Source of the DNA: Pirellulales bacterium
GTDB lineage: Bacteria; Planctomycetota; Planctomycetia; Pirellulales; JALHPA01
DNA length: 64,000 nt
Direction: 5' to 3'
NCBI GenBank assembly: GCA_040901795.1
Contig: JBBDYH010000130.1
Coordinates: 16,881-80,880, forward strand
Each line of letters opens with the position of its first letter. Position 1 is the stretch's first letter. Below are positions 9,774 to 11,648 of the stretch, one piece after another. A program made the position numbers and the translations under genes. The notes beneath the pieces are model-generated. The model worked only from the letters and a program-made list of their open reading frames with translations. It was not told the origin of the DNA and did not search any database.

Positions 9774-10178
9774 TCCGACTTCGATCAACCGCGCCGCATC
9801 TGCCTGAGCCCCCTGCTGCGGCGAGACATAGATCGTGGTCGAGTACGGAATCATTTGCTGGACGTGCAGCACTTGCCACCAGCGTCCGGTTTCGTCCTGA
9901 TAGTCGCCCGGCGCGACCGTCTGGTCCACGTAGAGCCAAGCGATGTTGTTATTGAACTCGTCATAGATGCGGAACAAGGCGTTATCGATGTTGTCCTCGT
10001 GCGGCGTCCAGGTGGCCATCACGGCCATTGTCGGGTAGTAGCTACGTGAGGGCACGGACAGGCTATACGTCGCATACGTGCTGGAGGTGGCGTTCGCCTT
10101 GAGGTAATCACCGTCGTAAGCGCGGGCATCCGAGACCAACGTCCAATCGCTGTTGTTCGGGTTGTCCACCGGCGTCGG
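9774..10178 (-). other. golvesin-like insertion 3
   Basis: aa 968-1102: ...SDWTLVSDARAYDGDYLKA...YATYSLSV...MAVMATW...ALFRIYD...VDQTVAP...WWQVLHV...ADAARLIEVGS. Confidence 0.45.
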
Positions 10179-10325
10179 CCGGTAGGGCGTCTCCGCCGGG
10201 TTGCGGAGCGGCTCGTAGACCGTGGTCAGGCGGTCCAAACCATCGTAAAGCGAGAGGGTTTCATGACCCAGCGGATCGACGGTCTTGGTAAGGTTGCCGA
10301 CCTTGTTGTAGGCGGTTTTGCTGAC

Positions 10326-10754
10326 CGGTCCGACCTCGACCAGCCGCAGGCCATCAGCGACCAACTTGCCGTCGGCGTCGGCATAGAGCCGGACAGTCAT
10401 TGAAGTGGAAGTCGGCTTGTAAAGGCCCAGCCGGCTCCAGTTGATGTTGGTGTCGGTCGTCTCGTCAGCCGGCGCGTACTTCTGGTTGACGAAGAACTTT
10501 CCGACGGCACTGGTTCCCTCGCGCAGCTCGTAGCGGGCGTTGCTGGCGTTGAGCGGGAGGTTATTAGCGTCGTTCTTGACCACCCAGGTGGCATAAACCG
10601 CGTAGGTCTTGGTAGTGTCGAGACTGGAGAACGACCATTCCGCATACTCGGTGGCCGAGCCGGCGTCGCGGTGGAGATGATCGCCCGAGTAACCGCTGCT
10701 GGTGTCGCGCGTCCAGTTGGTCGGGGGCGTGGTTTGGTTGTTCTGCTTGCTTTC
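10326..10754 (-). other. golvesin-like insertion 2
   Basis: aa 776-918: ...NWTRDTSSGYSGDHLHRD...YAEWSFSSL...YAVYATW...ARYEL...VNQKYAP...WSRLGLY...VADGLRLVEVGP. Confidence 0.5.
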
Positions 10755-11213
10755 GGCGGGGGTGCCAACGGGCACGGGGAGCGCGACGGCACTCTGCCGC
10801 CCGAGGCCATCATAGAAGTATTGCGTGGTCCGAGTGAGCGAGGCGGCCACGTCGGTCTGCGTGACATACGTCATCTGGCCCGCCGCGTCGTACTTGTACT
10901 GCGTGATCGGGCTGGTATAGGTCGATGTAGCGCCGTCTGGATCTGGAGCAGTGATTTTGACCGTGCGGCCCAGCGCGTCGGGTTCATAGACGGTCTCGTT
11001 GCCGAGCGCGTCGATTTGTTTCTTGACTAGACCATGATTGTAGTATTGCGTCTGGTAGACCGGGGCTGTGAGTGGTCCGCCGCTGCCGTCCGGATCGGCC
11101 AACGTGGTGCTGATCAGGCGATTCAGGTCGTCATAAACGCGCGTCGTGGTGTTTCCCAAGGCATCGGAGCTCGCCAGGAGGTTGCCTGCCGCGTCGTATT
11201 TGTACTTGACCGT

Positions 11214-11648
11214 CGGCCCGACCTCGACGATGCGCACCGCGTCGGCGCCCACCCAGCCGGTGGAGCTTGGCTTGACCTTGACCTTGTAAGTGGTCGAGCC
11301 GGAGAACACACCAAGCCGCTCCCAAGCGAAACTCCCTACGATCTCGTCGTTAGGGGCGTAGTTCTCGTCCAGTGCCACGGTTGTGAGCACGGTATTGTTA
11401 ACGTCGAGAACCTCATGTGGCGCGTCCGTGGCATTGCCAGGAGTAAAAACAGGCCACGTGATGAAGATCTCATAGTTCTTCGCGGCGTCCAAGCCGCCGA
11501 AGTCCCACTGCGTGTAATCGGGGCTGCCGGTAGCCGGGTCATGGTAGCGGTAGTCGCCGTTATACCCAGCAGACGTAACCCAGTCATTCCACCCGGCCGT
11601 CATGGTAAAGCCGGTGTCCTCATCGTCGATGATGCGCGTGTAGGCCGT
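11214..11648 (-). other. golvesin C-terminal-like / CBM-like insertion 1 in the RHS repeat region
   Basis: aa 478-622 of ORF 13079..9462: AYTRIIDDEDTGFTMTAGWNDWVTSAGYNGDYRYHD...YTQWDFGGL...YEIFITW...WERLGVF...GADAVRIVEVGP. Confidence 0.55.

Follow-up and report, generated by a model that had tools for sequence, protein, structure and literature searches.

Three golvesin-type jelly-roll domains in the shell loops of a planctomycete RHS/YD protein, likely glycan-binding modules of a polymorphic toxin

Polymorphic toxins of the RHS type can carry lectin domains in the midst of their repeats, an arrangement that was proposed to enhance contact with the target cell (Zhang, Aravind et al., 2012; PMC3482391). 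A decorated shell of tyrosine-aspartate (YD) repeats has been solved by cryo-electron microscopy for the mosquito protein SGS1, in which a CBM (carbohydrate-binding module), a carbohydrate-recognition domain of lectin type, a propeller and a wedge are inserted in the Rhs/YD sequence and decorate the exterior of the shell (PMC9935623). A paper on a bacterial teneurin-like protein mentions no carbohydrate-binding shell insertions (PMC13018210). Carbohydrate-binding domains are also known outside RHS proteins: the IPR033803 domains from the Bacteroides proteins Cbeg4 and Cbeg5 were shown experimentally to bind glycans with Gal-beta1-3GlcNAc-beta1-2Man-alpha1-3Man (PMC9166713), and the xanthan lyase PXL has an extra terminal xanthan-binding module, termed "unclassified" in a review (PMC10881899). 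The present analysis concerns an RHS gene on the minus strand of a contig from an NCBI "Pirellulales bacterium" metagenome-assembled genome (MAG; Planctomycetota), studied within a 64-kb stretch of that contig (the window). A first-pass annotation of the window, made from the sequence alone, had noted three golvesin-like modules that interrupt the YD repeats of this gene. Its accompanying remark that RHS cocoons are normally uninterrupted is overstated, given the embedded lectins of Zhang et al. and the inserted domains of SGS1.

The gene is read here as that of a planctomycete RHS/YD polymorphic toxin with three jelly-roll domains in its shell loops, which are likely to be glycan-binding adhesion or receptor modules on the exterior. 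The open reading frame (ORF) that holds them (13079..9462, minus strand) encodes 1205 amino acids (aa), is rich in YD motifs and matches Pfam RHS_repeat (PF05593) with E=8e-50. The modules, with residues numbered in this ORF, are:

11214..11648, minus strand: module 1 (aa 478-622), a beta-jelly-roll of the Golvesin_C / xanthan-lyase C-terminal type
10326..10754, minus strand: module 2 (aa 776-918), a paralogue of module 1
9774..10178, minus strand: module 3 (aa 968-1102), the most divergent paralogue

Each of these stretches of ~140 aa, as delimited in the first-pass annotation, translates cleanly and is devoid of YD motifs (a regular expression for the motif gave 0 matches inside the modules), with YD motifs and matches to RHS probes on both sides of each. 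A hidden Markov model (HMM) built from the three modules, run over all six frames of the whole window, matched there and nowhere else, and it set their bounds at aa 480-622, 773-918, and 967-1103, which differ by a few residues from the earlier ones. The claim that the modules align to one another and share a common motif holds as well: BLASTP gave 9e-22 for modules 1 and 2 (34% identity), 2e-11 for modules 2 and 3, and 1e-4 for modules 1 and 3, and 20 columns are invariant in the three-module alignment, including W, GD, TW, AP.D, W..L, and AD..R..EVG.

The domain family of the modules was established by family models, sequence profiles and predicted structure. Taken by itself, module 1 matches Pfam Golvesin_C (PF25275) with E=1.2e-9 over profile positions 2-131 of 132, scoring 38.8 bits where the gathering score of the family is 31.6 bits; among 12 modules taken from the window protein and its relatives, 8 match this family, the best with E=9.2e-23. 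Modules 2 and 3 are placed in the same family because they are homologous to module 1 and have collinear counterparts in the relatives. When the whole 1205-aa ORF was scanned against Pfam and NCBIfam, Golvesin_C was not listed, nor does the precomputed annotation contain it; domains embedded in long repeat proteins can thus escape routine annotation, as the excised module 1 passes the gathering score. At E<=1e-3, a profile of the modules retrieved 7357 cluster representatives from among 1.84 billion proteins, 880 of them at E<=1e-30, and many of the matches have up to 11 tandem copies; judged from these profile matches, the modules belong to a large domain family that is mostly extracellular-looking. 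A profile of three module sequences found nothing among the sequences of the PDB; one of 42 sequences reached residues 906-1039 of a Paenibacillus xanthan lyase (PDB 6F2P) with E=1.6e-16. The latter search also returned weak matches to MS2 coat protein (a tandem-dimer chain at E=9e-5 over profile positions 22-87, single chains mostly at E of about 0.3), which are probably compositional or spurious.

AlphaFold2 modeled module 1 with high confidence (predicted local distance difference test score, pLDDT, 96.8; predicted template-modeling score, pTM, 0.91), and the top Foldseek match of this model is again 6F2P (E=2.8e-8, TM 0.75, 24% identity), followed by CBM6, CBM35, CBM16 and CBM22 modules, plant lectins and domain III of a Cry toxin. 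A viral fold library gave generic jelly-roll matches only, in tail proteins. The assignment made in the first-pass annotation, a beta-sandwich of the golvesin or xanthan-lyase type, is therefore supported by a Pfam match above the cut-off and by 6F2P as the closest relative both by profile and by fold; the corresponding names are Golvesin_C and CBM6-CBM35-CBM36_like_2 (IPR033803). The CAZy label CBM84 was considered for the terminal domain of 6F2P and dropped, since CBM84 denotes a different module, that of PspXan9 (6FHJ; PMC10049358); 6FHJ was found neither among the sequence matches of the profile nor among the top 50 Foldseek matches.

The insertions are shared with relatives. Across the three modules and the intervening repeats, the window protein lines up collinearly with P0002 (1830 aa, N-terminally partial) and with two intact proteins, P0004 (2085 aa) and P0269 (2458 aa, from a Pirellulales MAG); module 2 has positional counterparts in all three of these proteins, and module 3 is 68% identical to its positional counterpart in P0002. 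Full RHS proteins were aligned as a set of 26 sequences. Orthologous modules share 35-75% identity and the flanking shell 34-64%, whereas paralogous modules share only 24-34%; this excess of ortholog over paralog identity, together with the collinearity, indicates that the three insertions are older than the split of these proteins and have since been preserved in the same way as the remaining shell. Among the proteins retrieved, modules lie within the RHS span of at least 13 metagenomic proteins, as 1-5 insertions in each, among them P0170, with four tandem modules in one loop (aa 1598-2164), and P0252, with five separate insertions. P0002 has a fourth module (aa 770-915) and extra repeats, both missing from the window protein. 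The same domain stands N-terminal to the RHS repeats in P0011 and P0025, and most other planctomycete RHS relatives have N-terminal arrays of Ig-like, cadherin-like, Calx-beta or FG-GAP domains, which points to embedding and N-terminal placement of binding domains as alternative solutions to one task. Existing annotation already records the combination in part: the precomputed Pfam strings of P0002-P0004 list Golvesin_C with RHS families, in P0004 with Golvesin_C interleaved with RHS_repeat and TEN_YD-shell, and P0230 is named "golvesin C-terminal-like domain-containing protein" by NCBI. The taxonomic assignment draws on two NCBI MAG names, both Pirellulales, and on the record of the window itself.

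The position of the modules within the shell follows a simple rule. The repeat register in this clade is roughly YxYDxxGNLxxxTDPLGxxTxYxYDxLxRLxxxT-xPDPDGxGPLxxPxT, in which long "PDPDGxGPLxxP" loops normally connect a "YDxLxRLxxxT" hairpin to the following "YxYDxxGN" hairpin. In the protein of ~2143 aa obtained by conceptual repair of the gene (its lesions are described below), ordinary DPDG loops lie at residues 386, 520, 715, 954, and 1005, and the modules occupy residues 770-914, 1068-1210, and 1260-1394. They start directly after degenerate P-x-P-D/V loop remnants (PRPDNT, PVPVGT, PLRNPA) and stop directly before the next "xxxY(K/N/H)(Y)D..GN," and the same loop-insertion rule is valid for every embedded module in P0002, P0004, P0269, P0170, P0230, and P0252. 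By this register, each module replaces one of the recurring "PDPDGxGPL" loops. An AlphaFold2 model of 1200 aa of the central piece (pLDDT 80.2, pTM 0.74; about 80-87 pLDDT within module 3) matched the RHS protein RhsA (7Q97) at 3e-33 in Foldseek, then Tse5, Tse15, teneurins, Tc BC components and SGS1 (8FJP), and it also matched 6F2P (E=1.5e-9). The 13 strands of the isolated module 1 model recur at identical positions in the 1200-aa model; since the strand pattern is the same in both, module 1 is predicted to fold autonomously in its context and not as shell strands. The first-pass annotation's own counter-case, that the segments might be modeled as ordinary cocoon strands, is not borne out for module 1.

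The product of such a gene would be a secreted RHS cocoon toxin with three lectin-like domains on loops of its shell. Located on the outside of the cocoon, these domains would attach the toxin to a surface bearing polysaccharide, either that of the target cell or the producer's own envelope; in other planctomycete RHS toxins, tethering would be done by N-terminal arrays of Ig-like, cadherin-like, Calx-beta or golvesin domains. Three folded 15-kDa domains plus a toxin are implausible inside the lumen of a cocoon with the dimensions seen in Tc and RHS structures. We infer exterior display of the modules because SGS1 provides a precedent and because the lumen would be too small for them; by analogy with their relatives, the modules may bind carbohydrate and have a role in targeting.

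The RHS gene of the window spans more than one ORF. The 1205-aa ORF, annotated by NCBI as a separate "hypothetical protein," is its middle piece, cut off from the rest by a stop codon and a frameshift:

13149..13955, minus strand: N-terminal RHS piece, a 268-aa ORF that shares its frame with the 1205-aa ORF
13149..13151, minus strand: in-frame TAA, which corresponds to a Tyr in the relative P0003
9462..13148, minus strand: central RHS piece, the 1205-aa ORF plus 23 upstream codons, the YD shell with the three modules
9527..9535 (near 9531), minus strand: frameshift site, where the frame switches between "...GRQTEER" and "GASTVRSLTFGY..."
7526..9631, minus strand: C-terminal RHS piece, a 701-aa ORF in the other frame, with further YD repeats, the RHS-associated core and the toxin region
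7529-8086, minus strand: putative C-terminal toxin region of about 185 aa, which follows the "DPDG" of the RHS core

At the TAA site the window reads "...FDYNGSI*TREAGDQFFYT" where P0003 reads "SLSGGTYTREQGDQYFYT," and the shorter segment "NGSI*TREAGDQFFYT" aligns with "SGGTYTREQGDQYFYT" of P0003. At the frameshift site P0002 and P0004 have "EERWKDGASTVRS," and the window has "EER" and then "GASTVRS" in the other frame; because the relatives read "EERWKDGASTVRS" (EERWKDG) here, ~11 nt (3n+2) appear to have been lost. The real start of the gene is probably the ATG at 13853 and not the GTG at 13955. A leader-type motif, FEQFEPRIVLA, of the kind found in planctomycete extracellular proteins lies at 13707-13739 (minus strand) and matches an LE(D/P)R..L motif near the N-termini of P0004, P0170, and P0214. 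Pfam scans of the RHS pieces found no propeller, SpvB or NHL domain. The RHS-associated core (~8087-8317, minus strand; NCBIfam TIGR03696 Rhs_assc_core, E=9.8e-14) covers aa 439-515 of the 701-aa ORF, and no Pfam family matched the C-terminal 207 aa of this ORF. The C-termini of P0002 and P0004 differ, as is predicted for polymorphic toxins. The toxin region of the window protein has an Ala/Val-rich hydrophobic stretch, and its last residues are "PPLGWHHWPWR."

The neighbors of the RHS gene are:

14733-15503, plus strand: ScpB gene (SMC_ScpB, E=1.6e-36), a divergently oriented neighbor of the RHS locus
7030-7506, minus strand: 158-aa ORF, a candidate immunity gene by position, which starts 20 nt past the RHS stop codon
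5939-6796, minus strand: 285-aa ORF that encodes an IS200-like transposase domain of the Y1 type (Pfam Y1_Tnp, E=2e-14) and lies ~700 bp downstream of the disrupted toxin locus

With ScpB as its neighbor, the RHS toxin locus adjoins ordinary housekeeping genes. The 158-aa ORF has no significant Pfam match (DUF2948 at E=0.028 falls under the cut-off).

With an in-frame TAA and a frameshift, the local RHS gene is probably a pseudogene whose full-length toxin is not expressed. A rival explanation is that the local feature is only a relic of a decaying gene and that the modules are functionless here, for which the chances are somewhat better than even. Its evidence is the stop codon in place of the relatives' Tyr codon, the ~11 nt missing where the relatives have "EERWKDG," the IS200-like transposase ORF ~700 bp downstream and the separate annotation of the middle piece as a hypothetical protein. 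It covers the local copy only, however: P0004 and P0269 are intact and have the same three insertions. Any decay would also be recent, since the coding sequence is fully open outside the two lesions and the modules model confidently, and the lesions themselves may be errors of the MAG consensus or assembly.

Several observations weigh against the interpretation of the modules as exterior glycan-binding domains of a toxin. Modules 2 and 3 alone gave no match to Golvesin_C in Pfam even at E<=10, and no NCBIfam model matched any of the modules significantly. A pattern scan of GTDB species-representative genomes with the four-protein collinear alignment gave no confirmed relatives, so that all supporting relatives are metagenomic. 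Finally, the gene is disrupted here by the TAA and the frameshift.

The modules might instead be structural or protein-binding elements, such as struts of the cocoon, docking sites for a partner or for secretion, or anchors to a proteinaceous surface layer of the producer, although this is unlikely. The jelly-roll also matches binders other than lectins (ephrin-receptor ligand-binding domains, a gingipain adhesin and Cry domain III), golvesin itself is described as a protein without demonstrated sugar binding (PMC9166713), and module 3 is without several residues of the family consensus, with ATY for AxW and NIDNALF for NRATNAP. Against such a role, the closest relative in both sequence and structure is a polysaccharide lyase's terminal domain, the sole members of IPR033803 tested for ligands are lectins (PMC9166713), and CBMs dominate the structural matches below the top one. 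That the similarity to golvesin and CBM domains is due to chance or composition, the segments being merely irregular YD shell, is highly improbable and was rejected: the absence of Golvesin_C from the whole-ORF scan and from the precomputed annotation, and the lack of a match for modules 2 and 3 on their own, are outweighed by the full-length match of module 1 above a curated cut-off, by the thousands of profile matches and the match to 6F2P, and by a confident module model with a CBM fold.

If the modules are glycan-binding domains on the shell exterior, a further step can be put forward tentatively, namely that a Pirellulales clade has fixed three embedded lectin-like domains as a multivalent glycan-recognition surface, by which the cocoon could find target cells and dock onto them unaided, without a type VI secretion system or a TcA-like carrier, as a bacterial counterpart of SGS1. 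The PDPDG loops would then be a general "plug-in" site for binding domains, occupied by 1-5 insertions and in one case by a tandem array of four. As exterior lectins, the modules would set the target specificity of RHS toxins in the phylum; the conserved DPDG-loop site would hint at the places in YD cocoons that accept extra binding domains, knowledge of use for the engineering of Tc- or RHS-type delivery capsules.

The first-pass annotation knew of no description of such modules in bacterial RHS proteins. This does not hold for embedded lectins as such, which have been known since 2012, but it does for the golvesin type: no paper was found on golvesin-type domains in RHS proteins, and the papers that use the word golvesin are not about RHS or YD-repeat proteins. 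Three details consequently appear to be new, namely Golvesin_C as an embedded domain, three positionally conserved insertions, and the repeated use of the DPDG loop for insertion.

Compared with the RHS toxins of Zhang et al. (2012), the window protein has the same RHS shell, RHS-associated core, variable C-terminal toxin and embedded domains of carbohydrate-binding type, with the same proposed role; the embedded domains are RicinB, discoidin and bulb-lectin there and Golvesin_C here, in three positionally conserved copies in DPDG loops. SGS1 (PDB 8FJP) is likewise a YD cocoon with inserted segments, which there form beta-sandwich CBM and lectin domains on the exterior, and its shell is matched by the 1200-aa model (Foldseek E=7.7e-20), but it is eukaryotic; two propellers and a wedge domain are present in it as well, and it encloses helices where an enzymatic toxin would be. 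The module profile did not match the sequence of the SGS1 CBM even at E<=10. Among solved structures, the nearest to the modules themselves, the C-terminal domain of Paenibacillus nanensis PXL (6F2P 906-1039), belongs to the same Pfam family and is appended to the end of a polysaccharide lyase, whereas the window modules are internal insertions in a toxin shell. Cbeg4 and Cbeg5 have the same InterPro domain (IPR033803), the likeness being one of domain family, and are secreted lectins of Fn3 and CBM domains without an RHS shell or a toxin. TcB-TcC and the teneurins, also matched by the shell model, are YD cocoons that carry non-YD domains, a beta-propeller in TcB and the NHL and FN-plug domains in teneurins; as propellers or plugs, these serve to close the cocoon or to bind partners, and they are not jelly-rolls of the CBM type. 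Since embedded lectins, a solved decorated YD shell and the annotated co-occurrence of Golvesin_C with RHS families were all known already, the arrangement in the window is a real but modest, incremental variation on a design already known for RHS toxins.

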